A stretch of 64,000 nt of DNA from a virus (IMGVR_UViG_3300038405_000273); one strand, 5' to 3'. Positions 1,203-63,296 are shown, numbered from the stretch's first letter. The notes: generated by a model from the letters alone, not told the origin. A program made the numbers and translations.

Positions 1203-4200
1203 TTACGGGAAGATGCCGAAGTTGAAGCAGACGTTCACGTCGGTCAGTGTCCCGTCGGACGTGCGGCGGATGTAGAGCGTCTTGGGCGAGTTCCCGAAGG
1301 CGCCGTCGACGCACGAGACGGTGAAGCCTGGAGACGTGTTGTCGAGCACGCCGGCCGTGAAGACGTAGTTCGGGAACTGCACGGTGACAGGGCTCGCGCT
1401 GATCTGCCACTGGCCGGTACCGACGTGCGTCGCGGTGCAGTTGTGGCAGTTTTGGGTTACGCCATCCCCGCCGAGCACACCGCTGCACTCGGATATGCGC
1501 TGCCCGTGAACGGTGACGTGGCCGCCCGTGAAGACGTCGCCAGTAAGGGAGGAGATGCCGCTAACCTGCAAGCTGCCGCCACTACCAACCGAGATACCAC
1601 CCGCACCGACAAAGAGCGTGTTTGCGATCGTCGTGTCGCCCGCTGCAGAGATGGTCAGCCGTGCTACTCCGTTCGTTGACAGGAATAGCTGATGTGCGTC
1701 GCTCGTGCCTACGACCAAGTCCTGCCCAGCAGTATTGAAGTAGTCTTGCGCATGTACGTCTCGACTGACGTGCAAATCGCTTGAGAACGTTCCGACCCCG
1801 GTCGAGTCCAGCGTGAGGATGGTCGTTCCGTTCACACTCAGAAATATTGACTGCGTATCGAGTGTAGCCAGTGTTAGCCCCGTCCCGAGAGGCGCAGCAA
1901 TGCCAAACGTCGCATACACCCTTCCTGCAAACGTCACAGCGCCATTCTGCAGCGGGCCTGCCGTGATGTCGACGAGCCCGAGCGTGCCGCTCACTTGGAG
2001 GACGTTTCCGAGAAAGACCGGATACGACGGGACGTTGTTTGTCGCGTTTCCAGCGTTGGTTGGACTTAGGTAGGCGCTATCTCCTGGGTTCGGTGCCGAG
2101 TCGAACTGGATCCATTGCGGTCCTGCTGTCCCTACGACCACACGGCTATTCGCGGCGCCAGTTGAAATGCTAACGCCAACAATTCCAACGGAATGGACCG
2201 AATCGCCTTTCGCCGGGATGACACGCCCGTTGACCTGTTGGCGAACGACGCTATAGCGGTTCGTTCCGGTGCCAGTGTCGGTTGGGTAGGTCTCCTGGAA
2301 GCGCTGGGGAGCATTCTGGCTTGAAATGATCTGGTTTCCGGCGGGATCCACGATCCCATTGGCAGCATCAGCCCAACTGACAATCGTGCCGTCCGAAAGC
2401 CGGATGTCGCCCAACGAGCCGGTGACTGTAGGCGCCCCGTTAAGGACGACCGTCGCACCCTGCGCGTTCGTCATGTCGAGCCCGACATCGCTGTTGCCCG
2501 TCGATCCCGCCGTGTTATTGGAGAGCGCCAGGACCGTACCGCGGCCACGCAGTAGAATCGCCGGCAACAGGCCCGAGCCCGTGATGGTGAGTAGGTTGAC
2601 GACGAGGGGTGCGCGAACGTCGAGGCCACCTACACCTGCTCTTGGTCCGATGACGCGAACAGGTGAGCCACTGCTGCCAATAGCCGCGCTGGTCGAATTC
2701 CACTGCGTGCTATCCCAGATGATCCCGCCACCAGCGACCGCGCCGGCTTGGATTACGCCAGCCGTGCCCCCAGACAGCGTGAGCGTGCTCGTAACTGCTA
2801 CGAGGCGCATAGTAGTCGAATATATGCCGTTCGTACAGCTCGCCGCGCTTCCCCACAGACCGCCGCCGACGGTATAGCTCGTGGCCACAAGCGGATCGAT
2901 ATACGAGTTTGCGACGAACAAGCACGACCCGAGTTGAGCGGTGATTACTCCGCCTAGACATCCAATAGTCGTAGCAATCGACGCGTTGATCGTGATGCTG
3001 GCAAATGAGATACCTACGAACTGAATACCTGCGTTGGCAATAGCGTTGCCCTTGTTTCCCTGGCCGCTGTAGTTCGTGGCCGGATAGGATAGCCCTGGCA
3101 TCTCTAGATAAAAGCGGTCGCTAGTGCTAGGCGTAGCAGGCAACGCCGAGTCGAGAGTGACAGTATCGGTTCCGCTGACAATGATCACCGTGCGGCACAC
3201 ATTTCGCAGCGCTGTCGTTGCCGTAGCGCTATCGAACCGGATGCGGCCCATCAGTGGTAATGCTGGTTCGGCAGGCAGTGCGGCTGCACCGCCGCCAGCC
3301 TGCTGCATTTTAATCACCTTCGTAGTGGGACTACCGATCGGGTTATAACCACCGGAATTGCAACCGGTAGAAGTGGTGAACCCGCAAAAAGTGCGATCTG
3401 CTGTGTCGTCAGCAAACGCGATAGAGCTTGCCGTTGCATTTGTCGTGGTACCACGCACGAGGCTAGCAGCGGATAGACCGCTTGCACCGCCGAGAAGCGT
3501 TTCGATGTCGGCTGTTGCATACGTCTGCGCCGCGACAATCAGCCGGAAAGTCCGACCGGCGTATTGTTGGGGCATAATCGCCTGCAAACCCGCAACCGTC
3601 TTCTTCGCTTGTGTCGCCGGGTTGTACGGGCCCGCGCTATCCGAGTAGCCGGGATTTGCATCGCTTCCGTTCACGGGATCGAGAAGGAACGTGCGTACAG
3701 TCGTCAGCGCCCATGTCGCGATCAGATTGTGTTGGCTAATGTTTCCGGTCACGATCAGATCGCCGCCGACGCTTTCGTTCCCAGTGATAGAGGAATTGCC
3801 CGACACGCTCAGGCTGCCACCATCGTTGATCGTGAGACCGCCACCGCCACTCAGCGTGATCGCTCCGCCGCTCACGAACAGGCCGTTCGAGAACGTGCCG
3901 AGTCCGACCGCCGTCAGCGTGCTGTTGAACGTCGCCGCGAGCATGACGCCGAGCGTCCCGCCGATAGTCGCGTTGTTCAGCACGGCAAGCGTGTTGAGCG
4001 TGGCAACGCCGGAGCACTGAATCGCGGCAGCGAAGACCGTTCCGCTGACCGTCAAGTCGTGGACGACGCTGACGGAGCTGTCGAAAACAGCGGCCGTCTG
4101 AACCGTAATTCCGCCGGGGACGACCAGGCTACCCGGAAGCACCATGGGATCCGGGATGCCCATTTGCACTGCGCCTTGCGCGCCGATGTTGCTGGGCGAC

Positions 4201-6485
4201 AAGAAGATCGCGTTCGGTGCTTGCGTCGTCAGGCTGGAAACGCCCGCTCCGCCTCCGCCGCCACCGGCTGGCCCTTGCGCGCCGGTACCGCCCTGCGCGC
4301 CTTGGAAACCCTGAGCGCCTTGCGCGCCGACGCCAGGGCCTTGAGCACCCTGGGCGCCCTGAAAGCCTTGCGCACCCGAGCCTGGACCTTGCGCGCCGGT
4401 AGAGCCCTGAAAGCCTTGCGCGCCCTGCGCACCCGAGCCCGCTGGGCCTTGAAACCCTTGCTGACCGTTCGCGCCCTGTGCCCCCTGCACGCCGATGAAA
4501 CCTGCAGGGCCCTGATTGCCTTGCGCTCCCTGCGCACCCGAGCCTGTCGCGCCCTGGAAGCCTTGCGCTCCTTGCTGCCCAGCCGGCCCGGACGTCCCGG
4601 TTGCGCCTTGCTGCCCAAGAGCGCCTTGGGCGCCCTGGAAGCCCTGCGTACCGGTCGCACCTTGGGAGCCTTGAGGACCGCCGCTCGGACCCTGCGGCCC
4701 TTGCGCGCCTTGGTTGCCCTGCGCGCCGCCGCTCGGCCCTTGCGCGCCGGTAGCACCTTGGGCGCCTTGAGCACCCGAGCCGGTCGCGCCTTGAAAGCCC
4801 TGCGAGCCCTGCGCGCCGGTCGCGCCTTGCGCACCGAGGCCGATTTGCCCTTGCGGTCCCTGTGGGCCTGCCGGCCCTTGCGCACCGCCCGTGCCGGTGA
4901 TTCCCTGTGCACCCTGAGCGCCTTGCGCGCCCTGTGAACCGGTTGCGCCCTGCGCGCCGGCGCCGGTGGCACCCTGCGCCCCTTGCGCGCCCTGTGAACC
5001 GGTTGCGCCCTGCGGCCCTTGCGATCCCGGAGGACCGCCGCTCGGGCCTTGGAAACCTTGCGCGCCCTGCGCACCCTGCGCGCCAGATGCAGGACCCTGC
5101 GCGCCGGTCGCGCCTTGCGCACCTTGATTGCCCTGCGAGCCAGTGTTGCCCTGCGCCCCCTGCACGCCGGTGAAGCCCGTCGGGCCCTGCGAGCCCTGGA
5201 AACCCTGAGCGCCTTGCGCGCCTGAGCCAGTCGCGCCCTGGAATCCCTGTGTTCCAGTCGCGCCCTGAAAGCCTTGCGCACCTGTCGCGCCTTGCGCGCC
5301 CGAGCCCGCGGGACCCTGAGCACCTTGCGCGCCTTGATTACCCGTGGCGCCCGAGCCGGTCGCTCCTTGGAAGCCTTGAGCGCCCTGAAAGCCCTGCGTT
5401 CCAGTCGCGCCTTGCAAGCCCTGCGGACCGGCCGATCCTTGAGCGCCGTTCGCGCCCTGGAAACCCTGCGCGCCTTGGCTGCCGACACCGGGGCCCTGTG
5501 CGCCCTGCGCACCCTGGAAGCCTTGAGAACCCTGCGCGCCGCCGCTCGGGCCCTGCGCGCCTGTTGCACCTTGGAATCCTTGCGATCCCGAGCCCGTCGC
5601 ACCCTGAGCCCCCTGGAAACCTTGCGTTCCCGTATTCCCCTGCGCACCTTGCGCGCCTGCGCCGGTCGCACCCTGGAAGCCTTGCGAACCCGTCGGACCC
5701 TGAGCACCGGTGGCGCCGGTCGTTCCGGTCACACCTTGCGCGCCTTGAGCGCCCTGGGCGCCGAAACCGATTTGGCCGGTTGCTCCCTGCGCACCTTGCG
5801 ACCCCTGTGCGCCTTGCGCCCCGGTGGCGCCGGTCGCCCCTTGCGCACCTTGCGCGCCCTGCGCCCCCTGCAGACCTTGGCCACCCTGCGCGCCGCCGCT
5901 CGGCCCCTGCGCGCCTGTTGCACCTTGGAATCCTTGCGCACCCTGCGAACCCACGCCGGGACCCTGCGGACCTTGCGCGCCCTGAAAGCCCTGGGCTCCT
6001 TGTGCACCTTGCACGCCTGGAAACCCGCGATCGCCTTGCGCGCCCTGCGGACCACCGAAACTTCCTTGTGAACCCTGCGGACCCTGCGCGCCGGTGCCGC
6101 CGCTGCCGAACGCGCACATGACGGTGTTCGTCGACGGGTACAGCAGCGGATCGGTCAGCGTTCCGATCGATACAGCAAGCGGCGGGGCGACATTCGTCGC
6201 GCGGCCCGGCATCGTCGCGGAGATGTAGAGCGGCTGCTGCGCAGTGATCGTGAGGCCAGGCTCTAACAGAACTGGCGCTTCGCCGACGGACCAGACCGTG
6301 ACCTTTCCGCCGGGGTTGACGACGCCCGAGAAGGCTGCGCCGACGTAGCCGGTGACGTTCGCCTGAGAGTCAGCAGATGCGCGCTTGCACTGGTTCGTCC
6401 CAGCGACACGGAGCAGCTCCCCCGAGACGATCGGGGTAGCGGTGACGTTCGTGAACGGAGGGAGGATTACGCCGTCTGCAGCCAT
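1203..6485 (-). CDS. Long collagen-like virion fibre protein (1760 aa)
   Basis: About 600 aa of Gly-X-Y repeats, N-terminal module shared with 6538..8157, [14 protein letters not shown] motif typical of entry to a beta-helix region, beta-rich C-terminus. Confidence 0.92.
4270..6090 (-). repeat. Collagen-coding degenerate 9-bp tandem repeats
   Basis: [15 protein letters not shown] triplets; exact 34-bp direct repeat at 4921 and 4981; near-identical ~54-bp repeat at ~5531 and ~5885; boundaries approximate. Confidence 0.95.
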
Positions 6486-6537
6486 GCGCCCTAGCGTACA
6501 CCCGTGAGGCGGGGCGGCGAAATCCTGCAGGACGTGC

Positions 6538-8157
6538 TCAGTTATACATCTTGAGCGTAGCAGTAAAGTCGATCTCGGTCTGCCCCTCGCCCGAAGTCGT
6601 TGCGAGCACAGACACGAAGTCGCCGACGTTGACCGTATGTGCGTTTGCAGCGATGGCTGTACCCGTCGCGAACAGTGTCGCAGTGATCCCAGTGGAGACG
6701 CCGTTTACATAGACGGTAAGCACCACGTTGGGAGGACCGACGAACGTAATCACGTTCACGTAGAGCACGATGTTCGCCGTACTGATGGGGGCATACCACG
6801 CCCAGACCGGGCTTTCGCCCTGATTGTTGTCCATCAGGTTCACAGCTGATGTCGGGCGCACGAAGAACGACGCAGGTGCATTCAGCAGATTGTTGTTGTT
6901 CGCACTTCCACCGCCGAACGACAGGGGGAGCGTCCAAAATCCGAGCGTTCCTTGAAAGCCTTGGGCGCCTTGGGCGCCTTGAAAGCCCTGCGCGCCCGTC
7001 GAGCCTGTCGCACCGGTGGCGCCCTTCGGACCTTGAAAGCCTTGCGGGCCAGTCGCTCCAGTCGCACCCGTTGAGCCTGTCGCACCGGTGGTGCCCTGAA
7101 AACCTTGCGATCCCTGCGCGCCAGTCGTCCCGGTCGCACCCGTGTTGCCTTGCGCGCCTGTTTTTCCTTGCGCGCCTTGGAAGCCTTGGGCGCCCTGAGC
7201 ACCTGAACCGGTCGCGCCTTGAGCACCAGTCGCACCCTGAAAACCCTGCGATCCGCTTGAACCTTGCGCCCCTGCCCCGGTGGCACCTTGCGCGCCGTTG
7301 GCACCTTGAGCACCAGTGGCGCCTTGCGCCCCTTGAAAGCCAGCACCCGTCGCGCCCTGTGCACCGTTTGGGCCTTGGGCACCCGTCGCACCCTGCGCCC
7401 CTTGTGCACCTGCGCCGGGGCCCTGCGGACCGGTGGCGCCCTGAGCACCTTGAAAGCCTGCACCCTGCGAGCCCTGCGCGCCTTGCACGCCAGTCGCGCC
7501 CTGAAAACCCTGCGTTCCAGTCGCGCCCTGAGCACCGATGGAACCTTGCGCACCCGTCGCACCCTGTGATCCTTGAACGCCGGTCGCGCCCTGGAAACCT
7601 TGTGGGCCGGCAACACCTTGAGCGCCGATGGCACCCTGTGATCCTTGAACGCCGGTGGCACCTTGGAAGCCCTGTGCGCCGACGCCAGGACCCTGCGGAC
7701 CTTGCGGACCGGTCGCACCCTGGGCGCCTTGCGCGCCCGACCCGCCGCTGCCGAGGCCAGATGCAGGCAGTACGGCTTCGACCTTCCCTGTGCGAGCGTA
7801 CGCGCCTGCGTCGATGATCGTGCCGATCGGGATGGCGATCCCCGGCTCCACATTCGTCGCGTAGCCCGCTGTGGTCTCCGAGATGTAGAGCGTCTGTCCC
7901 TCAACGGGAGTGAGCCCCTGTTCGAGCAGCACGAGCGCGCGGCCGTCGGTCTTGACCAGCACAACGCCTGACGCGCTCGGCGTCTTGTTGATCTGCCCCG
8001 AGATGATAACGCCGACGTAGCCCTGTACGTGTGGATTCGAGTCGGCGATCGCACGTACGACTTGGTCCCTGCCCGACACACGGACGATGTGCCCCTCGAC
8101 GAGAGGAACGGTGTCCGCGTTGTAAAGCGGTGGGATTATTGTGCCGTCACCTGCCAT
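6538..8157 (-). CDS. Shorter collagen-like virion fibre protein (539 aa)
   Basis: About 260 aa of Gly-X-Y repeats, N-terminal module paralogous to 1203..6485, small beta-rich C-terminal domain. Confidence 0.92.
6955..7740 (-). repeat. Collagen-coding degenerate 9-bp tandem repeats
   Basis: GAQ/GAT/GFQ triplets; boundaries approximate. Confidence 0.95.
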
Positions 8158-10388: not shown

Positions 10389-11153
10389 TCAGGCCGCGTA
10401 ATCGCCGGGGCGCAGGACGTTGCCCTGCGCGTCGCGGTACTCGACCACGCGCCCGTTGCAGATCGTCTTGTGCATCCCCGAGACGCTGTCGTACACGGTC
10501 TCACACGCAGTGGCCTGCTGCGCGGCGACCTCGTGAATGGTCTCGGGCTGCCACATCCGCGAGAACCACCCTCGACGGCGGCGCGGACGGCCGAACGCGT
10601 AGCCGAAGCCGTGCGTGGCGGCGGGCGCCGGCGCTCCCGGAGCCGCAGCGGCCGCGGGCGGCGCGGGCGGAGGCGGCGGGGGAGGAAGCGGTGCCGTCTG
10701 GAACGGCATCGACCGGTGGATGCGGCCGCTCGCGTTCTGGACGCCGGCTCGAATGTTCGACCCGTTCGCCATGACGCCCGGTAGGTACCCGCTGCGCATG
10801 ACCATGTACGGGTTCACGTGTGCATGGCCGCCCCCGACGCCGCCCGTCGCACCGAACGCGCCAGCGAAGCCAGCCGTCCCACCGGGCTTCGGCACCGGCG
10901 GCGCCACCGGCGCTCCTGGCGCTCCTGGAGCAGCGGCCGCGGGCGGCGCGGGCGGTGGGACCGCCGGCAGCGGCACCGGGCCCATGCTCGGATTGAGCGG
11001 CGGGCGGTACATGCTCGCGGCCGCCATCGGCAGCATGATCTTCGTCAGCGGGTGGAAGTGGCTGAAGAATCCGACGTCGGGGATCTTCGGCTGCCAACCG
11101 GGCTGTGCGGCGGATGGCGTCGAGAACGGGGTGCGGGATTGGCCGAGAATCAT
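10389..11153 (-). CDS. Pro/Ala-rich protein with internal duplication
   Basis: Start re-picked at MILGQ; two copies of PPPAPPAAAAPGAP; AFGRPRRRRGWF motif. Confidence 0.7.
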   Translation of the reverse strand: MILGQSRTPFSTPSAAQPGWQPKIPDVGFFSHFHPLTKIMLPMAAASMYRPPLNPSMGPVPLPAVPPPAPPAAAAPGAPGAPVAPPVPKPGGTAGFAGAFGATGGVGGGHAHVNPYMVMRSGYLPGVMANGSNIRAGVQNASGRIHRSMPFQTAPLPPPPPPPAPPAAAAAPGAPAPAATHGFGYAFGRPRRRRGWFSRMWQPETIHEVAAQQATACETVYDSVSGMHKTICNGRVVEYRDAQGNVLRPGDYAA

Positions 11154-11264
11154 CGATGTACCTCGCTGAAAAGCAGGATACGGCCAAGGCGCACATACGG
11201 TCAAATCGCGCTCGGGGCCCCCTCCGATTGGACAGCGCGCGGGTCGAACATCTACCATCAAGGT

Positions 11265-11858
11265 ATGTCGAAGCTCTGGAACAGCAAAGTGGCGCAATTC
11301 CTGTTGGCCTTCGTCGTCCTCGTCATGGGCGTGCTCATGAGTGTGAACGCGAAGGATCCTGATTTCTGGAACGCGCACAAGCACTGGCTGGTGATCGCGC
11401 TGGCGCTCGCCACGGACCTCCACGTGCTGCTCACCAAGAAGCCCACGACCGTCGGGGAAGCGGTGAAAGACGTGCTCGACACGAAAAAGGCGCCGCCCGT
11501 CGCTGGGCCGCCACCAGCAGCGATCGTCGTGCTCGGGCTAATCGTGCTCGCCGCGTATGCGTGCGCGCTGACGCCGACTCCCGCGCCCGGCACACCGACG
11601 GCGCCATCGACGACGTTCAAATACTGCACGACGGACGCGCTGAAAGCCGCGGGCGCGAATCTGCTCGGTGACGTCGCGAACGCCGTCGCCACGGACGACT
11701 ACGTTGCCGAGCTGGAGAAGCTCGTCGCGCAATTCGGCGCCGCCGAGGTGAAGTGCGCCGTCGAGCTGTTCGTGAACAGCACGTTCCGCAAGGCGAGCGC
11801 CGACAAGCTCGCGGCCACCGAGGTCTCGCGCGCCCAGGACTGGCTGTCGACGCAGTAA
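11265..11858 (+). CDS. Multi-pass membrane protein (holin-like or virion membrane protein)
   Basis: Start MSKLWNS at 11265; three hydrophobic segments, the third followed by Cys (LAAYAC); TACCAT box 6 nt upstream. Confidence 0.7.
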   Translation: MSKLWNSKVAQFLLAFVVLVMGVLMSVNAKDPDFWNAHKHWLVIALALATDLHVLLTKKPTTVGEAVKDVLDTKKAPPVAGPPPAAIVVLGLIVLAAYACALTPTPAPGTPTAPSTTFKYCTTDALKAAGANLLGDVANAVATDDYVAELEKLVAQFGAAEVKCAVELFVNSTFRKASADKLAATEVSRAQDWLSTQ

Positions 11859-12031
11859 TGCGCGCGATCCGGCTGTTGATCGTGCTCGGGAGCCTCGGCG
11901 TGTTGCGCTGTTACGCACACACGACGCCACCGGTCCATTGCGCGAACATCGCGAACTGCCCTGACGACCCAACCCAGTTGCCGCCGCTCACCGATAGCAA
12001 GGTGGACGGCGGTCAGAAAGACGGCAGATGA
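11858..12031 (+). CDS. Small secreted or lipoprotein-like protein
   Basis: TAATG coupling; MRAIRLLIVLGSLGVLRC signal-like N-terminus; Cys/Pro-rich. Confidence 0.55.
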   Translation: MRAIRLLIVLGSLGVLRCYAHTTPPVHCANIANCPDDPTQLPPLTDSKVDGGQKDGR

Positions 12032-12759
12032 TGCCCCAGATCGCGCTTGTGGCCGAGCCGGACACCGACATCGACGAGCTGACGATGGCGATCTGGGCCG
12101 ACGCGCTCGATCGGCAGGTCGCCGAGATCGCACAGGTGTGGGCAGCGTTCGGCGTCGTGTACACGCCAGTCGTCTTCTACAAGGTGTCGGAGAACTTGCC
12201 GATCGACTGCCGGATCGCGCTCATCACGCGCAGCCTTGGCGTTCCGGGCGCGGCGGGCTACCACGATGATCAGCTCGGAGTGATCTTCTCCCGCATCCTT
12301 CGGCAAGCCGACGACGACGACACGAGCGTGACGGCGTCACACGAAGATGCCGAAGAGGTTGGCGATCCAGAGTGCAACCTGTGGTCGCCGTGGGACGACC
12401 AGCACGAGCAGGCGAAAGAGCTGTCCGATCGCGTGGAAGGCGACGTCTACGACGGCACGGGCGTAGTCGGGACCGTCTCGCGCACGGTGAAGCTGTCGAA
12501 CTGGCTCTACCCGAGCGCGTTCGACCCGAATGGCAAAGCGCCTTTCGACAAGATGGGGCGGCTCGACTCGTGGAACGCCATGACCGAGGGCGGATACGTC
12601 ATCTTGCGGAACAAGCTCACCGGTGAGACCACCGACGTGTTCGCGCAGGCTCGGCGCGCGCCGTACGTGCTCCCGGCGAGCGAAAAGGCCAACAGCACGA
12701 TCGCTCGAAAGATGCGCCGGCCCGACTCGCGGATGATGCGGCGGCTGCGCAGTCGTTAG
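12028..12759 (+). CDS. Putative zincin-like metallopeptidase (HExxE)
   Basis: GAAGYH, SVTASHEDAEEVGDP, ELSDRVEG and LSNWLYPSAF motifs match a HExxE zincin-like family. Confidence 0.7.
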   Translation: MMPQIALVAEPDTDIDELTMAIWADALDRQVAEIAQVWAAFGVVYTPVVFYKVSENLPIDCRIALITRSLGVPGAAGYHDDQLGVIFSRILRQADDDDTSVTASHEDAEEVGDPECNLWSPWDDQHEQAKELSDRVEGDVYDGTGVVGTVSRTVKLSNWLYPSAFDPNGKAPFDKMGRLDSWNAMTEGGYVILRNKLTGETTDVFAQARRAPYVLPASEKANSTIARKMRRPDSRMMRRLRSR

Positions 12760-21245: not shown

Positions 21246-21776
21246 TCAGTGGCGGCGTTGCTCGTCGATCAGCTCGGCGACACGGGGTGGCTGCCAACCC
21301 GGAGGCTTGAGCGTCTTTCCGTCGGGCCGCGTCGCGCCACCTTCCTTGGCGATGTTCGTGCGGTGGACCTCGTCGAAAATCGGCTGGATGTTGACGCCGA
21401 ACTCGATCGCGGTCCCGAACGTCACGTAGAGCAAATCGCAGATGCCGTCGATAGCCTCGACGAGATCGGGCGTCGCAGGCGCGCTCTCTTCGAGGCGCCC
21501 AAGCTTCGAGCGCAGCAGAGCGCGCGTGTTTGTGGTTCCGAGGATGCCGACGACTGTCTCGATAGCCTCTTCGAGAATCAGGGCGGCGCGCAGCTCCGGG
21601 CGTCGAATATCTGGTGTCTCGCCAATCGTGTGGCCGAACTTGCGGTGGAACTCTTCGACCTGCTCCTGCATCCGATTTTTCAATGCGCGCTCCTTTCGCA
21701 TCTCGCGTTTGCCGCCGAACACGGCGTCGAAGTTGTCTCGATACTCTTGCGTCGCAGGTCTCGTCACGATCGACAT
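21246..21776 (-). CDS. MazG-like NTP pyrophosphohydrolase
   Basis: ILEEAIE, EAIDGICDLLYV, EVHRTNIAK, RPDGKTLKP motifs. Confidence 0.88.
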   Translation of the reverse strand: MSIVTRPATQEYRDNFDAVFGGKREMRKERALKNRMQEQVEEFHRKFGHTIGETPDIRRPELRAALILEEAIETVVGILGTTNTRALLRSKLGRLEESAPATPDLVEAIDGICDLLYVTFGTAIEFGVNIQPIFDEVHRTNIAKEGGATRPDGKTLKPPGWQPPRVAELIDEQRRH

Positions 21777-24223
21777 CAGCTCACCTTCTTCCAGTCTGGT
21801 CCCGCTGTCGGCTTCGCGGGGAAACGCATCGGACCGATCGTGCGGTTCATGGCCTTCTCGATGATCTTCTTCACGTCCTCGGCCTCACGCTCAGCGCACT
21901 CGACGACGATCTGGTCGTGGCCGTTGATGATGAGGCCGCGATGGTTGCTGAAGTCGAACGGGTAGGCGCGCACGACGTCGCGGATGGCATCGTTCTGGAG
22001 ATCGGCGCTTGAGCCCTGCACGGGGTGGTTGCCCATCTCTTCTGCTTTCTCTCCGCCGATGAAGTAGCGCTTCCGTTTGTGGTACGCCGTCTCGATGAAG
22101 CCCGTTCGCCGCCACCCGTAAATCAGGTTCTTCTTCCACACAGGGATCGCGGGGTGCAACTTCCACCACGTCTCATACGTCCGCTGGATGTGAGGCAGCG
22201 TGATGTTGGGGAAGAGTGGCTTGAGGTTGTCGTCCCGCATGAGGGAGAGCGTCTGGTAGATCTTCGGCGGCTGCGCGTCGTACGAGAGCGCGTACACGAA
22301 CCGCTTGATGAACGTGCGCACGTCGTCGGTGACTTTGTCGGTCGTCGTGCTGAACACGTCGCACGCGTTGCGGATGTGCACGTCGGGGCCCGTCCCAGCA
22401 TCGAACGCCGCGAACGCCTGGATCAGCGGCTCGTCGTGCGCGAGCAGCGCGATCATGCGCAGCTCGACCGCGCTCATGTCGGCCGCGACGAAGACGTTGC
22501 CAGGGTGTGGAACGAACATCGCGCGCAGCTTCTTGGGAATGTTCTGCGTGTTCGGTTCAGAGCTGCCCCACCGGCCTGAACGCTTCCCAGGCCGCCACAC
22601 GGGGCGCATCCGGCCATCACCGTGCACCGTCGGGCCGCCTTCGAGAAACCCGTCGACGATATGCCCGGTGTACGTGCCGAGGATCTTCTCCGCTTCACGG
22701 CAGCCGAGAATCGCCTGGATGACTTTCCGTGCGCGGTCGTCGACACCGAGCGAGAGCAGCTCCAAGAGCGTCGTCTCGTCCGTCGACGGGTCGCCCGAGT
22801 CCGTCATGTGCTCTTCTAGTTCTGGAAGCCCGAGATCACGATAGAGCAACTGTTGCATCTGTTTCGGCGAGTTCGGGTTCACCTCTCGGCCGGCGACAGC
22901 GACGAACTCACGTAACAGGCGCATCGACCGCTCCTGGTACTCGACGGCGAACTTCCAGCGTGCAGCCGGATCGATACGCACGCCCAGCGTCGACATGGCG
23001 CGGCCGATTCGGAACAGCTCCGCGTCGAGCTGGTAGATATGCCCCTGTGCCGCCGAAATGAGATTGCCCTCGATATACGGCTCGGACAAATACGTCACGG
23101 CGACGTCGAAGCTCAGATACTTGTCGAGGATCTCGTCGCTTCGCACGGTCGAGTGCTTGAACGTGTCCTTCCAGTGAGGCGCGTCGGTGTAGATCGAGCC
23201 GAGGAAGTCCAAGCTGTGCGGAAGCTCGGACGTGAAGCCGATCTGGTGGCCGACCATGGTGTCCGCGCAGCGGTCGTCGGGCAGCGGCATCCCGTGGCGC
23301 CACAGCACGATGGAGTCGAACGCGATGCCGTTGTGGAGCGCCGCGCGCGGCATTCGCTGGAAGTAGGCGGCGATCGCACGAGATTGTGCAGCGATCTCCT
23401 CGGGCGGCAGCATGTAGCGGCCACTGACCGACAGCGGCGAGTAGATCATTACCTCGCGATCCGTGCCGATTCCGATGCGGCGCAGGTTGCACGACCATGC
23501 ATCTTTTCCGTCGGTCTCGACGTCGATTGCTACGCGCGGCCGCTTAACGGCAAGGAAGTTTTCGGCCTCCGCGGCGGTGCGCGGCACGAAGTACCACGGG
23601 TCGCTCCACGTGCTTCCGCCCTGCGACAGCCGCACAGCTTTCTTCACATCCGCGCGAAAGATCGGCCGCATCACACGGCCCTCGTCGCGAAGTACGAAGG
23701 CTGCGTGCGGAGTCGCGATAGCTGGCTTGCCACTCGGCAGCGTAAGCGGCGTGCCGCGCAACTTCATCACGGATGCAGACGAGCCAAGCCCGGCGCCTTG
23801 GACGCTCACGCCGCCCATAAGCAGCACGTACTTCGCGAGCCGCAGCTCGTTTTGCAGCCGCGGGTTGCAGCACTCGACCGGCGTCGGTAGCCCCTGCTTC
23901 TTGAGCTGCCGCGCGTAGCGCTTGTAGTCGCCGCCGTCGGGGTAGCACAAAAAGGTGTTGGTGAAGCCGACCTTCGACATGTCCTGACCGGCCTCTTGCA
24001 GCGCGCGCCGAACTTCTTGCCCCGAAGCGCCGATGAGCGGACGACCCTCCTCGACCTCTTTCGTACCGGGCGCCTCGGCAACGACGAGGAATTCGAAATT
24101 TTCGGGGAGCGTCGGCATCACAGGACCGCGGCCGCAGCCAAGCAACGCGCAGCGCCCGCAGTCGGCCCCCAACATCGCCGCTGCGATGTGCTGGTCGGGA
24201 AGCTGGGACAGAGCCACGGTCAC
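21776..24223 (-). CDS. polA: Family A DNA polymerase with N-terminal family-4 uracil-DNA glycosylase-like domain and 3'-5' exonuclease domain
   Basis: CGRC...AEAPG..E...GRPLIGASG (UDG4), IDVET (exonuclease), EPNTQNIP, DMSAVELRMIA (motif A), KRFVYALSY (motif B), GHDQ (motif C). Confidence 0.95.
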   Translation of the reverse strand: MTVALSQLPDQHIAAAMLGADCGRCALLGCGRGPVMPTLPENFEFLVVAEAPGTKEVEEGRPLIGASGQEVRRALQEAGQDMSKVGFTNTFLCYPDGGDYKRYARQLKKQGLPTPVECCNPRLQNELRLAKYVLLMGGVSVQGAGLGSSASVMKLRGTPLTLPSGKPAIATPHAAFVLRDEGRVMRPIFRADVKKAVRLSQGGSTWSDPWYFVPRTAAEAENFLAVKRPRVAIDVETDGKDAWSCNLRRIGIGTDREVMIYSPLSVSGRYMLPPEEIAAQSRAIAAYFQRMPRAALHNGIAFDSIVLWRHGMPLPDDRCADTMVGHQIGFTSELPHSLDFLGSIYTDAPHWKDTFKHSTVRSDEILDKYLSFDVAVTYLSEPYIEGNLISAAQGHIYQLDAELFRIGRAMSTLGVRIDPAARWKFAVEYQERSMRLLREFVAVAGREVNPNSPKQMQQLLYRDLGLPELEEHMTDSGDPSTDETTLLELLSLGVDDRARKVIQAILGCREAEKILGTYTGHIVDGFLEGGPTVHGDGRMRPVWRPGKRSGRWGSSEPNTQNIPKKLRAMFVPHPGNVFVAADMSAVELRMIALLAHDEPLIQAFAAFDAGTGPDVHIRNACDVFSTTTDKVTDDVRTFIKRFVYALSYDAQPPKIYQTLSLMRDDNLKPLFPNITLPHIQRTYETWWKLHPAIPVWKKNLIYGWRRTGFIETAYHKRKRYFIGGEKAEEMGNHPVQGSSADLQNDAIRDVVRAYPFDFSNHRGLIINGHDQIVVECAEREAEDVKKIIEKAMNRTIGPMRFPAKPTAGPDWKKVS

Positions 24224-24229
24224 GACGAA

Positions 24230-25174
24230 TCACGCGTCGAGAAGCAACCGCTTTGTGTCGCAGCCGAACGTGATGGTTCCGAGTTGCGCTCGCGCGCACG
24301 CATCGAGCAGTGTCTTCGCCATCACGCGATACTGCTCGATGGACAAGCCGCCGCGCATGAGCCGGTAGCGCAACAACAGATACGCCGTCCGCACGGCGTC
24401 GCTCCAGCAGTACGCCTCGACTTTTTGGATGTCGCCGCGATTGAACAGCTCGCGGACTTTCGTGCCGTCGACGGCGCCTTTGCCTGGCAGCCCGATCATC
24501 TGCGTGAGCGTATCGAGGCTGAAGCCTGTTCGCGGGAGCGCGCCGAACTCGGTGAGCGCGTCGAACAGGTCGAGGTGCTGATCGCTATAGCGCTTGCGGT
24601 AGTCACCGTCCGCCCAGCTCTGCGAGATGCCGTGGCGAAGTGCTCGAAGGCTCAACACTGGGACGTCGAACGATCGACCGTTGAACGAGACGACCGTCGG
24701 GTGGTGCTGCTGCACGAATGTGTTCCACGCCGACAGCAGCGCTGCCTCGTCGTCTTTGAAGGTGCTGGTGCCGACACAGCCCATGCCGAGGAGCGCAGGA
24801 GTATCGCCCTCCAGAGACAGCCAGACGTACCCGATCGCGACCACACGATGTGCATAGTGGGGCGGGAACGGATCCTTCGCTTCACCATTTGCCGTTTTGC
24901 GTGGCGCACGTGGTTTGCGCGGCTTCTTGGTGCCCTGCGGCGGGATCGTCAGGGTGAAACCGGCTGCGGGCGTCGTCGGGGCGGCGATGGTGCTCACCTC
25001 GGGCAGCGGCACAGCCTGCAGGATCGGTGCGGCCGGCGGGGGCGGAGCACCGGGCAGCCCGAGCGGCTGCTGGCCGGGAAGCGTTCCGTCTTCGGCCGGA
25101 GGCTCTGTCATCGTTGGCGGCGTCCACAAGGACAAATCGGGCACGGTCTCGATGTCGAAAATCAGGTAGCTCAC
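24230..25174 (-). CDS. DnaQ/PolB-like 3'-5' exonuclease with Pro-rich insert
   Basis: FDIETVP, SFNGRSFDVPVL, YCWSDAV (Exo I-III). Confidence 0.9.
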   Translation of the reverse strand: MSYLIFDIETVPDLSLWTPPTMTEPPAEDGTLPGQQPLGLPGAPPPPAAPILQAVPLPEVSTIAAPTTPAAGFTLTIPPQGTKKPRKPRAPRKTANGEAKDPFPPHYAHRVVAIGYVWLSLEGDTPALLGMGCVGTSTFKDDEAALLSAWNTFVQQHHPTVVSFNGRSFDVPVLSLRALRHGISQSWADGDYRKRYSDQHLDLFDALTEFGALPRTGFSLDTLTQMIGLPGKGAVDGTKVRELFNRGDIQKVEAYCWSDAVRTAYLLLRYRLMRGGLSIEQYRVMAKTLLDACARAQLGTITFGCDTKRLLLDA

Positions 25175-27180: not shown

Positions 27181-27406
27181 GCGTGGGCTCCGTTGGCTGT
27201 GGCGGAGCGAAGGCGTCCTGCGCTGCGTGGAACATGTCGTGCGCCTGATCGTGGAACTCGTGGCAGTCCGTGTGCGTGTTCAGCTTCGTCGCGGCACTGG
27301 CGGCGACTAGTAGCAGCGACTCGACGCACTCGCGCGGGCTGCATCCGCTGCGGTCGGCTGCGCGTGCGAGCTTCGCGATCAGCTGCTCCATCTTCGGCGT
27401 GCGCAT
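27170..27406 (-). CDS. Hypothetical protein
   Basis: Start MRTPKM coupled (TGATG) to the upstream stop. Confidence 0.6.
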   Translation of the reverse strand: MRTPKMEQLIAKLARAADRSGCSPRECVESLLLVAASAATKLNTHTDCHEFHDQAHDMFHAAQDAFAPPQPTEPTRAN

Positions 27407-33499: not shown

Positions 33500-35434
33500 T
33501 TACTCTGCGTTGAAAAACCACATCCAGAACAGCCGGCCGTTCTCGATGTTCGTGCCGAAGTAGCAGCTCGCCGAGTGAATCAAGCGGCTGTCGAACAGTA
33601 CGAGGCGATTGTAGACGTTGCCGATCCGATCGATCAGCTCCCACGCCGTCAGGTCGAAGAGCTTCCCGTCGAACGTCTCGCGCGAGACAGCGTCGTCCGT
33701 TGGCGAGCGCCGATGCTTCGTCGCCTTGCTGCGATAGAAACTCGTTCCGGACTCGGGCGGCGCGTCCGGGGTGAGCATGATCATCGCGGCGTAGCTCTGC
33801 GCATCCGCGTGGTACACGATCGGGTCTTCCGACGTGCAGTATTGAAACTTGCCGTTCACCGGCTGCTCTTCCCAGTCGGTGATGCGCTTGCCGAGAAGGT
33901 TCTCGAACAGCTCCTTTTCGATCGCGTGGTGGAACCGTTCGGCCGAGCGCACGCCCGCCGAGCCCTGCTTCGCGTAGGTCTGCATCAACGCTGTGCCACG
34001 CCAGTAGTGCGGGTTGGCGAGGAAGTCGTCGACGACGATGATCGTGGGGGTGGTCGATCCGATGATGGCGCTTTCGCGCGAAGTCAAGACGGGATCCATC
34101 GAAACCTCCAACGACGTGCTTGCGTGGGCGCGCCGAAATAGAAGCAGCGTTTCTCGAAACCACGGAGTCGAGCTGTTCGGAGGGACAACCGAGCGAGCAG
34201 CAGCCGTCCAGCTATCCACGTGTTCGAAACCGCGTGTCGCCAAGCTCCTGATTATCTCGTCATTGCTTTTGCAGTTGACGTGCCCCGTCCCGCCTTGGCC
34301 GGGCACCGCCCAGGATAGGATCAACCGATCGGCACAATTATTGGCTAGATTGTCGAGCAGTTGGTGCTCGTACTCGGCGGGGATATGCTCGCCGACTTCC
34401 AGGCAGACGATCGTTCCAGGCGGCACGGAGAACGGCACGGTGAGATCGCGCTGCTCGATCGCGGGATGGAGCCGATAGGCAAGCGGCAACGGTTCTCCCT
34501 CGAACCCGCACAAGTTGATATGGCCTGCATCTGCAAGCGCGCGCAGATAAGTCCCCGCCCCACAGCCGAAATCGTATATCGGAGCGTCCAACGGGGTGTC
34601 TGCAAGAAATCCGACGATCCACGCAGCGAGTTCACGAGACCACCCGTAGTCGTCTGGACGAAGCTCCCCAGACCAAAAACCTGTGTGCGAAATAATCATC
34701 TTGTCCAGACGAGGATACCGCGGCTTCGCATGGATACGATCGCGTTCAGCAAGGTCCGCGATGCGCTCGTCTTCTGTGCTTTGTCCGAACCAGCCCGCGC
34801 CGGCGCTCGTGTTGTACATGCACAGCACTTCATCGATGAATGCACGCTTCTCTCCTGCCATATCCGCGAGCGGCAACATGACGGCGCGGTCCGTGCAGTA
34901 GTAGCACCATGCTCCGCTAGGCGTCTTTAAGTCGTCCTCGGCAATGCGCTTGACCAGCCACGCGCGAAACGTTCTCAAGTGCGTCAGTCGCCAGTCCCAC
35001 GGTACATCCCTGGGATCGACACCGGGCGGGTACAGCCCCGCGAAGCCGCGCTTGGGAAAGCCGAGTGGCGGCTCGGTGAACTCGAACTGCCCGTAGGTGA
35101 ACCACGCGTCGGTATCTTGATACACCTGCACCAGACGATCGAAGACGCGATCGTGCGCCAGCCAGTCGTCGCCATCGAGCCAGACGATGATCTCGTCGTC
35201 GGGGAGGCTGTGCCAAATAGGAAAGAGGTTGGCTAGGCTCGGCGCCAATGAACGCCGCACACGGACGCCTGCGCTCGCCACACTCTCGGCCGCGAGCGCT
35301 GTCTCTTCGTCGGCGGCGCTGTAGACGTGCATCCAGTGCGGGTAGCGCTGTGCACGCACGGACTCGATGCACTTCGGCGCCCACTGCGCCGCGTTCTTGG
35401 CCGTCGACGTGACGGTGAAGTGAGGAAGGCTCAT
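33500..35434 (-). CDS. GT2 glycosyltransferase + SAM methyltransferase + 2OG-Fe(II) oxygenase fusion
   Basis: WLDGDDWL (DxD), YDFGCGAG (SAM motif I), YHAD...FDSRLIHS (HxD...H). Confidence 0.85.
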   Translation of the reverse strand: MSLPHFTVTSTAKNAAQWAPKCIESVRAQRYPHWMHVYSAADEETALAAESVASAGVRVRRSLAPSLANLFPIWHSLPDDEIIVWLDGDDWLAHDRVFDRLVQVYQDTDAWFTYGQFEFTEPPLGFPKRGFAGLYPPGVDPRDVPWDWRLTHLRTFRAWLVKRIAEDDLKTPSGAWCYYCTDRAVMLPLADMAGEKRAFIDEVLCMYNTSAGAGWFGQSTEDERIADLAERDRIHAKPRYPRLDKMIISHTGFWSGELRPDDYGWSRELAAWIVGFLADTPLDAPIYDFGCGAGTYLRALADAGHINLCGFEGEPLPLAYRLHPAIEQRDLTVPFSVPPGTIVCLEVGEHIPAEYEHQLLDNLANNCADRLILSWAVPGQGGTGHVNCKSNDEIIRSLATRGFEHVDSWTAAARSVVPPNSSTPWFRETLLLFRRAHASTSLEVSMDPVLTSRESAIIGSTTPTIIVVDDFLANPHYWRGTALMQTYAKQGSAGVRSAERFHHAIEKELFENLLGKRITDWEEQPVNGKFQYCTSEDPIVYHADAQSYAAMIMLTPDAPPESGTSFYRSKATKHRRSPTDDAVSRETFDGKLFDLTAWELIDRIGNVYNRLVLFDSRLIHSASCYFGTNIENGRLFWMWFFNAE

Positions 35435-44650: not shown

Positions 44651-44670
44651 TCGAGCTAGAGTCCTGGCCC

Positions 44671-54886: not shown

Positions 54887-54913
54887 AGCTGTCTCCCCTT
54901 GCAGACTGCGTGC

Positions 54914-56074: not shown

Positions 56075-56111
56075 GGTCGTTGGCTCCTGTTCGAGGTTGG
56101 CGAAGCGTACA

Positions 56112-56126
56112 GCCAGCAATCTAGCA
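56112..56126 (-). promoter_or_regulatory. Repeated promoter motif TGCTAGATTGCTGGC
   Basis: Exact copy upstream of the AAA+ gene. Confidence 0.75.
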
Positions 56127-59074: not shown

Positions 59075-59962
59075 TTACACGCCTCGAACCGGGTAGCTCC
59101 GCAATCGGTGCGCCAGCTCTACAGCTGGACGCGCCGATTCGATCGTGTAGCCGAGCCCGCGCAGCGTTTGCTCGTACAGCCGTGTGTGCAGCTCGTTGAA
59201 GCCATCGCTGAACAGCACGTCTTCGCCATCGACGGTCATCTTTCGGCACGGCTCGTCCCCATCGATCGACAAGAACCAGCGACAGAAAGCGCGCTCCAAG
59301 TGTAGCGTGCCGCTCACGGCCGTTGACGTGCGCAGCGTAATCGCCATCTTGTCGACTCGCCCGAAGACCCACAGCAAAGCGTCGAACAGGTGGATCCCGA
59401 TATTCGTGACCAAGCCGCCGCTCCGTTCAGGATCTCCTTTCCACGAGTGTTGGTACCACGGACCCCGCGGCGTGACGTAGCGGACCTCGACCTCGTGGTG
59501 TCCGGCTTTTGACATGATCCGCGAGCGCAGATTCGCGAGCGCGGGCAAGAGCCGCAGCTGCAGGACCGTATAGACGTGTCGCCCTGTGCGGCGCTCTTCT
59601 TCGGCGAGCGCGTCAAGATTCCACGGAGATAGCGTGAGCGGTTTCTCGCAGATGACGTTCGCGCCGGCGCGGAGCCCAAGCCGCGAGTGCACATCGTGCA
59701 AGTGGTTCGGCGAGCACACACTGAGCCAGTCGATGCCGTTGCCGATCCGACGCAGTAGATCGAGGTGCCGCTCGAACCGCTCGGGCTCGACGAAGAACTC
59801 TGTGCTCCGGTTGAACCGGTCGAGCACCCCCACGGCATCGTGCGGGTCGAGCGCGGCGACCAGCTCGCCGTTCACATCTCGGATCGCCTGCATGTGCCGA
59901 GGGGCGACGAAGCCTGCGGCTCCGGTGAGGGCGAAACGCGGCGTCGACGGGGGCACGCTCAT
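59075..59962 (-). CDS. wbpB: Gfo/Idh/MocA oxidoreductase, WbpB/WlbA-like UDP-GlcNAcA 3-dehydrogenase
   Basis: GAAGFVAPRH, SPNHLH, VICEKP, SWKG...SGGLVTNIGIHLFD. Confidence 0.85.
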   Translation of the reverse strand: MSVPPSTPRFALTGAAGFVAPRHMQAIRDVNGELVAALDPHDAVGVLDRFNRSTEFFVEPERFERHLDLLRRIGNGIDWLSVCSPNHLHDVHSRLGLRAGANVICEKPLTLSPWNLDALAEEERRTGRHVYTVLQLRLLPALANLRSRIMSKAGHHEVEVRYVTPRGPWYQHSWKGDPERSGGLVTNIGIHLFDALLWVFGRVDKMAITLRTSTAVSGTLHLERAFCRWFLSIDGDEPCRKMTVDGEDVLFSDGFNELHTRLYEQTLRGLGYTIESARPAVELAHRLRSYPVRGV

Positions 59963-62317: not shown

Positions 62318-62406
62318 CCTACTGGCACGTGTCGACGCTAGTGTGTGGCTGCGTTAGCCTTTGGCTCGTGATCAGCAACGTCATCGAGGTTTCACGGCGC
62401 CGATGA
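62314..62406 (+). CDS. Tiny membrane peptide
   Basis: ATGA coupling at both ends; 30 aa, hydrophobic. Confidence 0.45.
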   Translation: MTYWHVSTLVCGCVSLWLVISNVIEVSRRR

Positions 62407-63296
62407 GCACGACCCTCATCGTCTTCTCGAAGGACCGCGCGATGCAGCTCGACTCACTGCTGCGATCGGTGAGGGACCACTGCATGGGGATCGACCGCGT
62501 GGCAGTTGTGGCGCGGACGTCGAGCGATCTGCATAGATCGGCGTACTTGGCGCTCGCGAAGCACTTCGACGACGTAGATTGCATCCTCGAAGACACGGCC
62601 GGCCTTGGCTTGGCTTTGAGCTGCGCTGTCGGGGCAGGCGCGGTAAAGCCGCACGGCGAGCCAGAAGCACAAGTGACAAGGTTTCCATTACACGATCATC
62701 TCGCTTTCGCCGTCGACGACATGCTGTTCTATCGCCCGTCCGACTATCGCTTCGCTGTGCGCGCCCTTGAAGCTGCCGACGGGTTCGTCTGGTCGTGGCG
62801 ACTGGGACATCCGTGGCCAGCGCATGACCCGTATTGGGTGCGCGCGCCGTGGCTGCCACATGCGGACTACGGCTACCTCTTCCACACCGACGGTTCGCTG
62901 TACCGCACGAACGAATGGACGTGCCTTCTCGATCGCTGCTTCCCCGCCTGGACCACAATGCAGTGCACGCCCAACGATATTGAAGGCACGGTCGCAGCGC
63001 GAAAGGCCGAGTGGATAGCCGATGCTGGACCGCACCTCGGACCGCCACAGCCGACTTGCATCACGTGGCAGGTGAATCGCGTGCAGACGAAGTACGGCTC
63101 GCCAGCAGCCGAGATTCCGGAGACGCACATCGACGTGCTCGCGGCTGCGTATCTTGCAGGGAAACGCGTCGATAACGAGCGGCTCTACACGCGGCTGCAA
63201 AGAGACGCGCTGAGCTTCAACCCGCCGGGAACGCGGCCGACGCACATCTATGCTTGCGAGGAGGCGTCGCGGTTCTACGCAAGCACGATCCGATGA
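62403..63296 (+). CDS. GT-A fold glycosyltransferase-like protein
   Basis: LIVFSKDRAMQL...LLRS, FAVDD, YLFHTDGSLY. Confidence 0.8.
   Translation: MSTTLIVFSKDRAMQLDSLLRSVRDHCMGIDRVAVVARTSSDLHRSAYLALAKHFDDVDCILEDTAGLGLALSCAVGAGAVKPHGEPEAQVTRFPLHDHLAFAVDDMLFYRPSDYRFAVRALEAADGFVWSWRLGHPWPAHDPYWVRAPWLPHADYGYLFHTDGSLYRTNEWTCLLDRCFPAWTTMQCTPNDIEGTVAARKAEWIADAGPHLGPPQPTCITWQVNRVQTKYGSPAAEIPETHIDVLAAAYLAGKRVDNERLYTRLQRDALSFNPPGTRPTHIYACEEASRFYASTIR

Follow-up and report, generated by a model that had tools for sequence, protein, structure and literature searches.

Candidate capsid fibres with long collagen stalks and a linked set of phage enzymes that may glycosylate them

A 64,000-nt stretch of the viral record IMGVR_UViG_3300038405_000273 (hereafter the window; GC ~64%, positions counted from its first letter) encodes two adjacent collagen-like fibres and, in two separate clusters, glycosyltransferases (GTs), methyltransferases (MTases) and a 2-oxoglutarate (2OG)-Fe(II) oxygenase. 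A sequence-only reading of this DNA had proposed that fibres and enzymes form a virion glycosylation system. The locus raises two questions: to which part of the particle are the fibres attached, and do the enzymes act on them? Our answer is that the two proteins are trimeric capsid fibres and that the enzymes modify them; taken together as one statement, this has in our judgement about an even chance, or slightly less, of being right, and its parts are graded separately below.

Both fibre genes were confirmed as open reading frames (ORFs; Table 1), and their products match the Pfam Collagen family (PF01391) with 171 bits for the long and 109 bits for the short fibre against a cut-off of 27.2. 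The G-X-Y stalks span 618 and 271 amino acids (aa), close to the ~600 and 260 aa estimated earlier, and would measure ~177 and ~78 nm if fully helical (computed at 0.286 nm per residue), in good agreement with the ~170 and 75 nm given before. Judged from sequence, the collagen reading frame is the genuine one, because the non-collagen N- and C-terminal domains encoded in the same frame have homologues elsewhere. The composition is also as first described, with Gln and Thr dominating the Y position (114 Gln, 58%, and 34 Thr, 17%, in the long stalk; 46 Gln, 53%, and 25 Thr, 29%, in the short one). Ala is dominant at X in both stalks, and the frequent Ser (~11-12%) also lies mostly at X. Charged residues are rare: among the 618 aa of the long stalk there is a single acidic and a single basic residue, and the short stalk has two basic and no acidic residues in 271 aa. 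Pro makes up ~5% of the long and ~3% of the short stalk; it occupies X in 25 and 9 copies, respectively, and is nearly absent from Y. Because the stalks are almost free of charge and so poor in Pro, the usual bacterial strategies for stabilizing a triple helix do not apply to them.

The likely location of the fibres is indicated by their N-terminal domains (N-domains), which are each ~130 aa long and ~47% identical to one another. An AlphaFold (AF2) model of the short-fibre N-domain, built on 53 sequences, reached a pLDDT of 86.9. When this model was compared with 48,161 PDB representatives, the top 16 fold matches were all phage virion proteins, and 15 of the 16 were capsid decoration or cement proteins. 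These included XM1 (Z 12.5), HFTV1 (11.6), Pam3 gp6 (10.3), the base of phi29 gp8.5 (9.1-9.3) and E217 (8.6), together with the decoration proteins of FCWL1, Sf11, BB1, TW1, phiCD508, Adjutor and Patience; herpesvirus triplex proteins ranked just below. Foldseek and the ESM Atlas concurred on the fold, with Atlas TM values of 0.72-0.77 to cement families. An exhaustive HMMER search found the N-domain in 249 representative clusters. In most of the listed matches it was N-terminal, in proteins of 130-1700 aa, and in 45 of the best 150 matches it ran directly into collagen with Gln or Thr at Y near residue 130.

Pam3 gp6 is present as 140 trimers at three-fold and quasi-three-fold axes (PMC9942802), and phi29 gp8.5 is a trimeric, quasi-three-fold capsid binder that bears a fibre (PMC7602432). 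The short fibre was likewise predicted to be trimeric: a homotrimer model of aa 1-176 gave an ipSAE of 0.81, compared with 0.00 for the best control, with a contact agreement between runs of at least 87% and a pLDDT of at least 79. The mark for this score, which the model passed, was reached by 21 of 30 solved homomers and by none of 23 monomers in a calibration on two copies, the model itself having three. The predicted contacts between subunits lie inside the N-domain and along aa 140-176 of the collagen part. Because the predicted N-domain fold matches trimeric capsid cement and decoration proteins and the base of the phi29 head fibre, these models suggest that both proteins are most likely head fibres, in which a trimeric base binds the capsid and bears a collagen stalk that ends in a distal domain, and we consider their anchoring to the capsid probable. 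Neither this predicted decoration-type base nor the hydroxylase-like fold of the oxygenase described below had been part of the sequence-only reading.

Several observations weigh against a capsid location and bear on the alternative that the N-terminal beta-barrel docks on the baseplate or neck and that the proteins are tail or side fibres, a question separate from the target of the enzymes. The exception among the top 16 fold matches is a C-terminal fragment of the phi29 gp12 tail appendage (Z 10.2). When the 53 members of the N-domain family were compared with Pfam, PF22758 matched 0 of 53 and PF09956 matched 1 of 53 at E 0.5, and a search of PDB sequences with the N-domain profile gave no match. 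In other phages, the central non-collagen module of the long fibre belongs to tail fibres: it is 38% identical to P0122, the gene directly after the baseplate module of the myovirus L044. The PHROGs label for the collagen proteins is tail fibre, and the neighbourhood of the fibre genes contains no recognised capsid gene. However, the PHROG matches stem from the collagen repeats, no N-terminal cement-like domain is present in the L044 tail fibre, and both the predominance of decoration proteins among the fold matches and the order of base, trimeric stalk and tip, as in phi29 gp8.5, favour the head. We regard a tail location as unlikely, though it keeps appreciable weight.

The missing structural genes also count against the capsid assignment. 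Across the 64-kb window, neither a major capsid, portal or large terminase gene nor any tail gene could be recognised. Nor could one in 28 ORFs, searched with PHROGs and Pfam, of G026 (IMGVR_UViG_3300050821_013777; 121.5 kb, 88% complete), a relative whose PolA is 68% identical and which has dozens of genes in common with the window at 40-78% identity and in conserved order. Whole-record scans of G026 with PF05065 and PF03237, tblastn with the structural proteins of MW202482, and Atlas look-ups of the window ORFs 40787-42094 and 44605-46785 recognised no capsid, portal or terminase gene either. These negatives cover the window and G026, and ~20-30 kb of the genome of this lineage lies beyond both; relatives of 138-150 kb occur.

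Homologues of the central module of the long fibre are found in other contexts, including a separate 655-aa gene in L046 (43% identical), a collagen-free fibre in L063 (39%) and L067. Because other phages use these homologues in tail fibres or as separate genes adjacent to fibre genes, the module appears to be portable and is probably host-binding. The C-terminal domain of the short fibre (aa 409-539) had no Pfam, PDB-sequence or protein-database homologue, and neither fibre's distal part matched any PDB sequence. The long fibre also carries a further cement-like module beyond the central one, the third and weaker copy across both fibres, which could serve as a folding aid or make fibre-fibre or fibre-capsid contacts. 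This distal copy is conserved in the long fibre of G026 (aa 1797-1904).

The enzymes of the window comprise five GT domains, three MTase domains, one oxygenase domain and one GFO/IDH/MocA oxidoreductase. The number of GT and MTase domains is thus eight rather than the nine or so counted at first, while their kinds were correctly named: Pfam assigns the GTs to GT2, GT-B (GT1/GT4) and the DUF616-type TOD1/MUCI70 family, and the three S-adenosylmethionine MTase domains to class I (a weak match), Methyltransf_11 and Methyltransf_24. In the 33500-35434 protein the GT2 match is weak as well, and the motif WLDGDDW fits the DXD motif of GT-A enzymes. The 35448-37520 protein has 2339 homologues, many of them on contigs of ~100 kb. 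The putative sugar-nucleotide dehydrogenase is a GFO/IDH/MocA protein at the family level; a sugar specificity would rest on weak NCBIfam matches to inositol and UDP-GlcNAc 3-dehydrogenases. The gene is conserved in G026 alongside the second cluster, and the enzyme possibly makes a sugar precursor. The 311-aa protein encoded at 62361-63296 had no Pfam or NCBIfam match; it has homologues in L047 (46% identical, beside enzyme genes and ~3 kb from a fibre gene) and in the second cluster of G026 (45%). No membrane helix was predicted in any enzyme of the window.

The GT2-MTase proteins (GT2-MT) form a family that is widespread in viral and metagenomic contigs, with over 2,000 homologues. Among 185,579 bacterial and archaeal species genomes (one genome each), only two full-length matches were found, and no collagen gene was found near either. 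Because full-length matches are so rare there, GT2-MT appears from these searches to be essentially a viral family. As a guess from the labels of metagenome-assembled genomes, the host would be a high-GC soil bacterium of the Acidobacteriota or Actinomycetota. Only the GT2 core matched phrog_841 (E 1.6e-8), and the Gtr-type set for O-antigen conversion (membrane-bound GtrB, GtrA flippase, GtrC) was not matched.

The oxygenase called in the sequence-only reading is a DUF6445 domain in which the H-x-D...H...R residues are invariant (alignment A2). Its AF2 model (pLDDT 84) is closest in fold to protein prolyl hydroxylases, namely OGFOD1 (Z 13.7), a Trichoplax PHD (13.6), a Pseudomonas prolyl 4-hydroxylase (P4H; 13.0) and PHD2 (12.6), followed by the PBCV-1 collagen P4H (11.8), the lysyl hydroxylase of mimivirus L230 (10.8) and LH3 (10.0). 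On this model the oxygenase is prolyl/lysyl-hydroxylase-like. Two considerations caution against assigning it to the stalks. First, the sugar- and antibiotic-modifying oxygenases HygX, AviO1 and EvdO are interleaved with these matches and nearly as close, and the modelled fold is compatible with a protein or a sugar substrate alike. Second, a hydroxylation target is not evident, because Lys is absent from the long stalk and limited to two residues in the short one, and Pro is nearly absent from Y.

The link between enzymes and fibres emerges from relatives of the window. In G026, a GT2-MT homologue of the 33500-35434 protein is encoded immediately before the long fibre gene (2026 aa, 280 triplets) and on its strand, and beyond this homologue lie a divergent TOD1-GT2-MT fusion and then a separate DUF6445 gene (cassette 72919-76882). 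L067, a 150-kb soil contig, has the same arrangement. On the 12.7-kb contig L047, a 1219-aa cement-collagen fibre is flanked by homologues of the 33500-35434 protein (45-47%) and of the TOD1 domain; further out, the homologue of the 311-aa protein lies on one side and a GT2-MT homologue (56%) two genes downstream on the other, so that homologues of four enzyme genes or domains of the window surround this fibre. In L068, GT2-MT and DUF6445 adjoin an N-domain fibre whose first 405 aa are without collagen. Because identity between the GT2-MT proteins of the different lineages is only 54-61%, except for 81% between G026 and L067, the linkage seems to have outlasted considerable divergence and rearrangement. 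In two unrelated jumbo phages, L039 and L042 (contigs of ~200 kb), the end of GT2-MT is separated by 15 and 53 bp from the collagen gene that follows, which encodes 512 and 3030 aa, respectively, and has an N-terminus unlike that of the window fibres.

Some features of these loci are recorded here in their own right. The first cassette is mobile within the lineage: it resides in the replication module in the window and L043, and beside fibre genes in four other lineages. Domain orders are reshuffled: TOD1 stands at the C-terminus in the window but at the N-terminus in G026 and L067, and DUF6445, part of a fusion in the window, is a separate gene in G026, L043 and L068. L039 (7032-12783) and L042 (7213-20390) have a common order of decoration-like, capsid-like (both assigned by eye), GT2-MTase and collagen genes, and the 3030-aa collagen protein consists of repeated G-A-S/G-A-T blocks with globular modules between them.

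A count across viral records was consistent with this linkage. Collagen genes (PF01391, E <= 1e-8) were present in 10 of 15 GT2-MT-bearing records of at least 20 kb, compared with 1 of 10 controls selected by their HerA-like ATPase, which have only this ATPase in common with the window, plus one helicase in L008 (one-sided Fisher p 0.007; p 0.047 for records of 40-110 kb only). The GT2-MT enzyme was absent from 4 of 4 control records tested. The DUF6445 domain accompanies GT2-MT in 16 of 32 IMG/VR loci. Locus searches of IMG/VR with PolA, the SNF2 helicase and the N-domain gave no match, and that with ThyX returned G026 only. The correlation of collagen and GT genes in related genomes that the earlier reading had called for was therefore found, both as adjacency in G026, L067 and L047 and in this count.

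The linkage has its own counter-evidence. In the window itself, the first and second clusters are 27 and 53 kb away from the fibre genes, and the first is placed between the DUF3987 primase-helicase and HerA genes, within the replication module, as it is in L043. Fibres without an enzyme gene in the flanks examined occur in L062, L074 and L058, and enzyme-bearing records without a collagen gene exist, for example L041 (87% complete). With so few controls, and with lineages that lack phylogenetic independence, the co-occurrence statistic is support rather than proof. The proposal of a glycosylation system is accordingly borne out as far as the association of enzymes and collagen goes, while the glycan, its methylation, the acceptor and the role are still matters of inference.

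GT clusters near phage fibre genes are customarily read in another way (PMC7029224), namely that the enzymes remodel a host surface polysaccharide (O-antigen, exopolysaccharide (EPS) or teichoic acid) during infection or lysogeny, against superinfection or for release, and leave the fibres unmodified; the clustering would then reflect only a shared, fast-evolving host-interaction region. The GT2 domains do show weak matches to GtrB-like, TuaG, PglI and EPS enzymes, and their homologues bear the JGI label 'O-antigen biosynthesis protein'. G026 may moreover be temperate, because integrase-like and ParB-like genes are present at 53.6-55.1 kb. However, the enzymes lack a transmembrane helix, a flippase or a Gtr-type partner, and the GT2-MT family is hardly represented in bacterial genomes, closely adjoins collagen genes in unrelated phages, and is fused to a protein-hydroxylase-like oxygenase. 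We judge this explanation clearly unlikely, both for the enzymes and for the clustering.

The enzymes could also glycosylate other virion proteins, such as the major capsid or tail tube protein, or build a free or capsid-bound polysaccharide, rather than act on the collagen stalks. Capsid and tail proteins are the targets of known phage virion glycosylation (PMC11256854). GT2-MT in L039 and L042 lies ~1.3 kb downstream of the decoration-like and capsid-like genes (read by eye only), and the collagen-free start of the L068 fibre and the lack of a collagen gene in L041 point in the same direction. Yet the nearest neighbour of the enzyme genes is the collagen gene itself in G026, L067, L047, L039 and L042, and enzyme-bearing records are enriched for collagen genes; a target other than the stalks is in our view improbable. 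The broader statement that the enzymes act on the fibres or on other virion proteins is, by contrast, one that we favour, if less firmly than the anchoring of the fibres to the capsid. Hypermodification of phage DNA bases against restriction is very improbable: phage pathways with a TET-type oxygenase, an MTase and a GT exist (bioRxiv 10.1101/2023.12.21.572611), TET and AlkB folds reach Z ~10.5, and the first cluster lies amid replication and nucleotide genes (ThyX, Tmk, PolA-UDG) in the window and L043, the only position that favours it, but prolyl hydroxylases outrank both folds, no TET_JBP or DNA C5-MTase Pfam domain was found in the window enzymes, which have only DUF6445 and Methyltransf_11/23/24, the MTases weakly match sugar O-methyltransferases, and in four other lineages the cassette stands beside fibre rather than replication genes.

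Returning to capsid fibres modified by the linked enzymes, we infer from the gene structures, the domain folds, the predicted trimer and the linkage in relatives how such fibres might be made. Fibre chains would be synthesized in the cytoplasm and modified there by the soluble phage enzymes. The prolyl/lysyl-hydroxylase-like oxygenase would first hydroxylate a fibre residue, Pro at X being one candidate, or a sugar. GT2 domains would then place the first sugar on Thr or Ser or on the newly introduced hydroxyl, further GT2 domains together with the TOD1/MUCI70-like and GT-B ones would lengthen the glycan, and the three MTases would cap it by O-methylation of its sugars; an unusual sugar precursor may come from the GFO/IDH/MocA oxidoreductase. 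The trimeric fibres would subsequently dock on the capsid through their cement-like base; if Pam3 gp6 and the phi29 gp8.5 base are a guide, three copies of it would occupy a three-fold or quasi-three-fold site. From this base, a collagen helix with hardly any charge, little Pro and an abundance of G-A-Q and G-A-T would extend for ~78 or ~177 nm to the distal domain, and the distal part of the long fibre, with its tail-fibre-type module, would bind the host surface. The glycan might stabilize a helix that has neither hydroxyproline nor charge pairs, shield the particle, or mediate adhesion.

A more far-reaching picture, which we put forward tentatively and would not expect to hold in full, is that of a 'hairy' head on which many three-fold sites carry collagen fibres of ~80 and ~180 nm bearing a phage-made methylated glycan. 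Such a head might, with the same reserve, be the bacterial-virus counterpart of the mimivirus fibrils and of the collagen-modifying enzymes L230 and LH3, and it is conceivable rather than likely that hydroxylation-primed or Thr-linked glycans replace hydroxyproline and charge pairs as the stabilizer of the helix.

Precedents exist for collagen-like phage fibres, for capsid decoration proteins and for virus-encoded glycosylation alike. What appears to be new is the predicted attachment of very long collagen stalks to a capsid base of cement type, the fusion of a modelled prolyl-hydroxylase-like oxygenase to GT and MTase domains, and the apparently recurrent linkage of this enzyme set to cement-collagen fibres. 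To our knowledge, phage-encoded virion glycosylation has been demonstrated experimentally only in a few mycobacteriophages. Where GT clusters near phage fibre genes are usually taken for modifiers of host O-antigen, this lineage offers an alternative that can be tested, because candidate substrates are named, the enzymes are soluble and expressible, and the linkage recurs in several lineages. If true, it would define a class of capsid decoration in which a cement domain is fused to a very long collagen stalk, it would provide bacterial viruses with a collagen hydroxylase/glycosyltransferase system comparable to the ones found in animals and giant viruses, and it would explain how Pro-poor, charge-free collagen helices fold. 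It would bear on phage adhesion, environmental persistence and immune shielding, and the enzymes could be a source for glycosylated recombinant collagens.

Table 1. Fibre and enzyme features of the window
Feature	Position	Strand	Basis
Long collagen fibre gene, 1760 aa	1203..6485	-	ORF; Pfam Collagen E 3e-51
Second cement-like module copy in long fibre, aa 1412-1497	1995..2252	-	BLASTP E 3e-6 to short-fibre N-domain; A1 profile match
Central non-collagen module, long fibre, aa ~903-1395	2301..3779	-	Homologous to fibre-associated genes elsewhere
Long-fibre collagen stalk, aa 129-746	4248..6101	-	195 G-X-Y triplets in 23 segments
N-terminal cement-like domain, long fibre, aa 1-128	6102..6485	-	Matches A1 profile, E 1.7e-49
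Short collagen fibre gene, 539 aa	6538..8157	-	ORF; Pfam Collagen E 1e-31
Short-fibre C-terminal distal domain, aa 409-539	6541..6933	-	No fold assigned
Short-fibre collagen stalk, aa 138-408	6934..7746	-	87 G-X-Y triplets
N-terminal capsid-decoration (cement)-like domain, short fibre, aa 1-135	7753..8157	-	AF2 model, fold matches
GT2 - class I MTase - 2OG-Fe(II) oxygenase (DUF6445) fusion, 644 aa	33500..35434	-	Pfam, PHROGs
2OG-Fe(II) oxygenase domain, aa 463-642 of the 33500-35434 protein	33509..34048	-	Alignment A2, AF2 model
GT2 - Methyltransf_11 - TOD1/MUCI70 (DUF616-type) fusion, 690 aa	35448..37520	-	Pfam
GFO/IDH/MocA NAD-dependent oxidoreductase	59075..59962	-	Pfam E 2e-14
GT-B (GT1/GT4) + GT2 two-domain glycosyltransferase, 704 aa	60102..62216	+	Pfam; 56%-identical G026 homologue
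Conserved 311-aa protein, no fold assigned, travels with the enzymes	62361..63296	+	Homologues in L047, G026
Methyltransf_24 S-adenosylmethionine MTase, 195 aa	63254..63841	+	Pfam E 9e-20

The remainder of the window encodes phage-type replication genes, including a family A polymerase fused to a uracil-DNA glycosylase (UDG)-like domain, a PolB-type exonuclease, ThyX, thymidylate kinase, an SF1 helicase, SNF2, DUF3987 and a PD-(D/E)XK nuclease. In the polymerase (21776-24223, minus strand) the UDG-superfamily domain is N-terminal, and the GenBank phage closest to the polymerase, Virus Rctr197k, is only 27% identical. No tRNA gene was found in the 64-kb window, and a promoter and terminator scan of the fibre region gave no excess over shuffles. 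A HerA/FtsK-like (DUF87) ATPase at 37940-39625 (minus strand) is labelled 'terminase large subunit' by PHROGs. Because its 37%-identical homologue in MW202482 coexists with that genome's own terminase, portal, capsid and tape measure, the ATPase is probably not the packaging motor, and the idea that it marks a tailless virus was rejected on the same grounds. Next to the fibre genes of relatives, the genes found most regularly are the two function-unassigned ones at 10818-12759 (plus strand), which occur there in G026, L063 and L065, the first also in L068; this first gene has hydrophobic helices, and a lysis or membrane role is possible. At 53414-56119 (minus strand), a DUF2201 metallopeptidase/VWA protein is paired with a MoxR-like AAA ATPase, and G026 retains the pair at 55-65% identity. 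At 23507-24814 and 26513-27778 (L050), G026 further encodes a GT2 protein with a weak C-terminal TPR match, an architecture like that of SgtA (see below), and a transglutaminase-like protein with a weak intein-splicing match.

Among known systems, phi29 gp8.5, Pam3 gp6, E217 and XM1 have the base fold in common with the window fibres (Z 8.6-12.5), whose base is a predicted trimer, and phi29 gp8.5 is also alike in its succession of base, trimeric stalk and distal tip. These proteins have a helical coiled coil or no stalk, in contrast to the collagen of ~78 and ~177 nm in the window. The N-domain does not belong to the families of the cement proteins at the sequence level, and capsid binding by the window fibres is a prediction from the model. 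SPP1 gp12 is likewise a collagen-like trimer that binds the phage capsid (PMC7602432). It differs in binding the centres of hexamers and in having neither a cement-type base, a distal domain nor associated glycosylation enzymes. SPP1 gp12 is, in addition, a tiny protein.

For the enzymes, PBCV-1 A064R, a GT-GT-methyltransferase (PMC9614988), is comparable as a soluble viral multi-domain GT/MTase that builds a methylated glycan on a virion protein. Mycobacteriophages are an established case of virion glycosylation by phage-encoded enzymes (Freeman 2023, as cited in PMC11256854), the GTs of Che8 and its relatives glycosylating capsid proteins. Both systems differ from the window in GT families, domain orders and acceptors, which are an N-glycan on the capsid protein for A064R and C-terminal O-glycans on capsid and tail tube for the mycobacteriophages, and neither includes an oxygenase.

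Closer in substrate is C. difficile SgtA, a GT-A enzyme that adds O-GlcNAc to Thr and Ser in the collagen triplets of BclA3 and whose gene adjoins bclA3 (PMC7157674). This pair and Bacillus BclA resemble the window in having collagen-like filaments with Thr at Y and a GT gene beside the substrate gene. BclA carries methylated sugars. These are, however, proteins of bacterial spores and not of virions, and Thr is accompanied there by Pro, whereas in the window it is accompanied by Gln. In a comparison of domain architectures, SgtA consists of a GT-A domain and a C-terminal TPR, whereas the GT2 proteins of the window have no TPR Pfam match.

Mimivirus L230 combines a glucosyltransferase with a lysyl hydroxylase and acts on the viral collagen L71 (PMC9614988). 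Unlike L230 and its animal counterpart LH3, the window enzyme has an MTase between its two outer domains, its nearest folds are prolyl hydroxylases, the stalks are almost free of Lys, and the host is bacterial. In each of the two viruses, nevertheless, collagen-like proteins are encoded together with a GT fused to a 2OG-Fe(II) hydroxylase or, in the window, a hydroxylase-like oxygenase.

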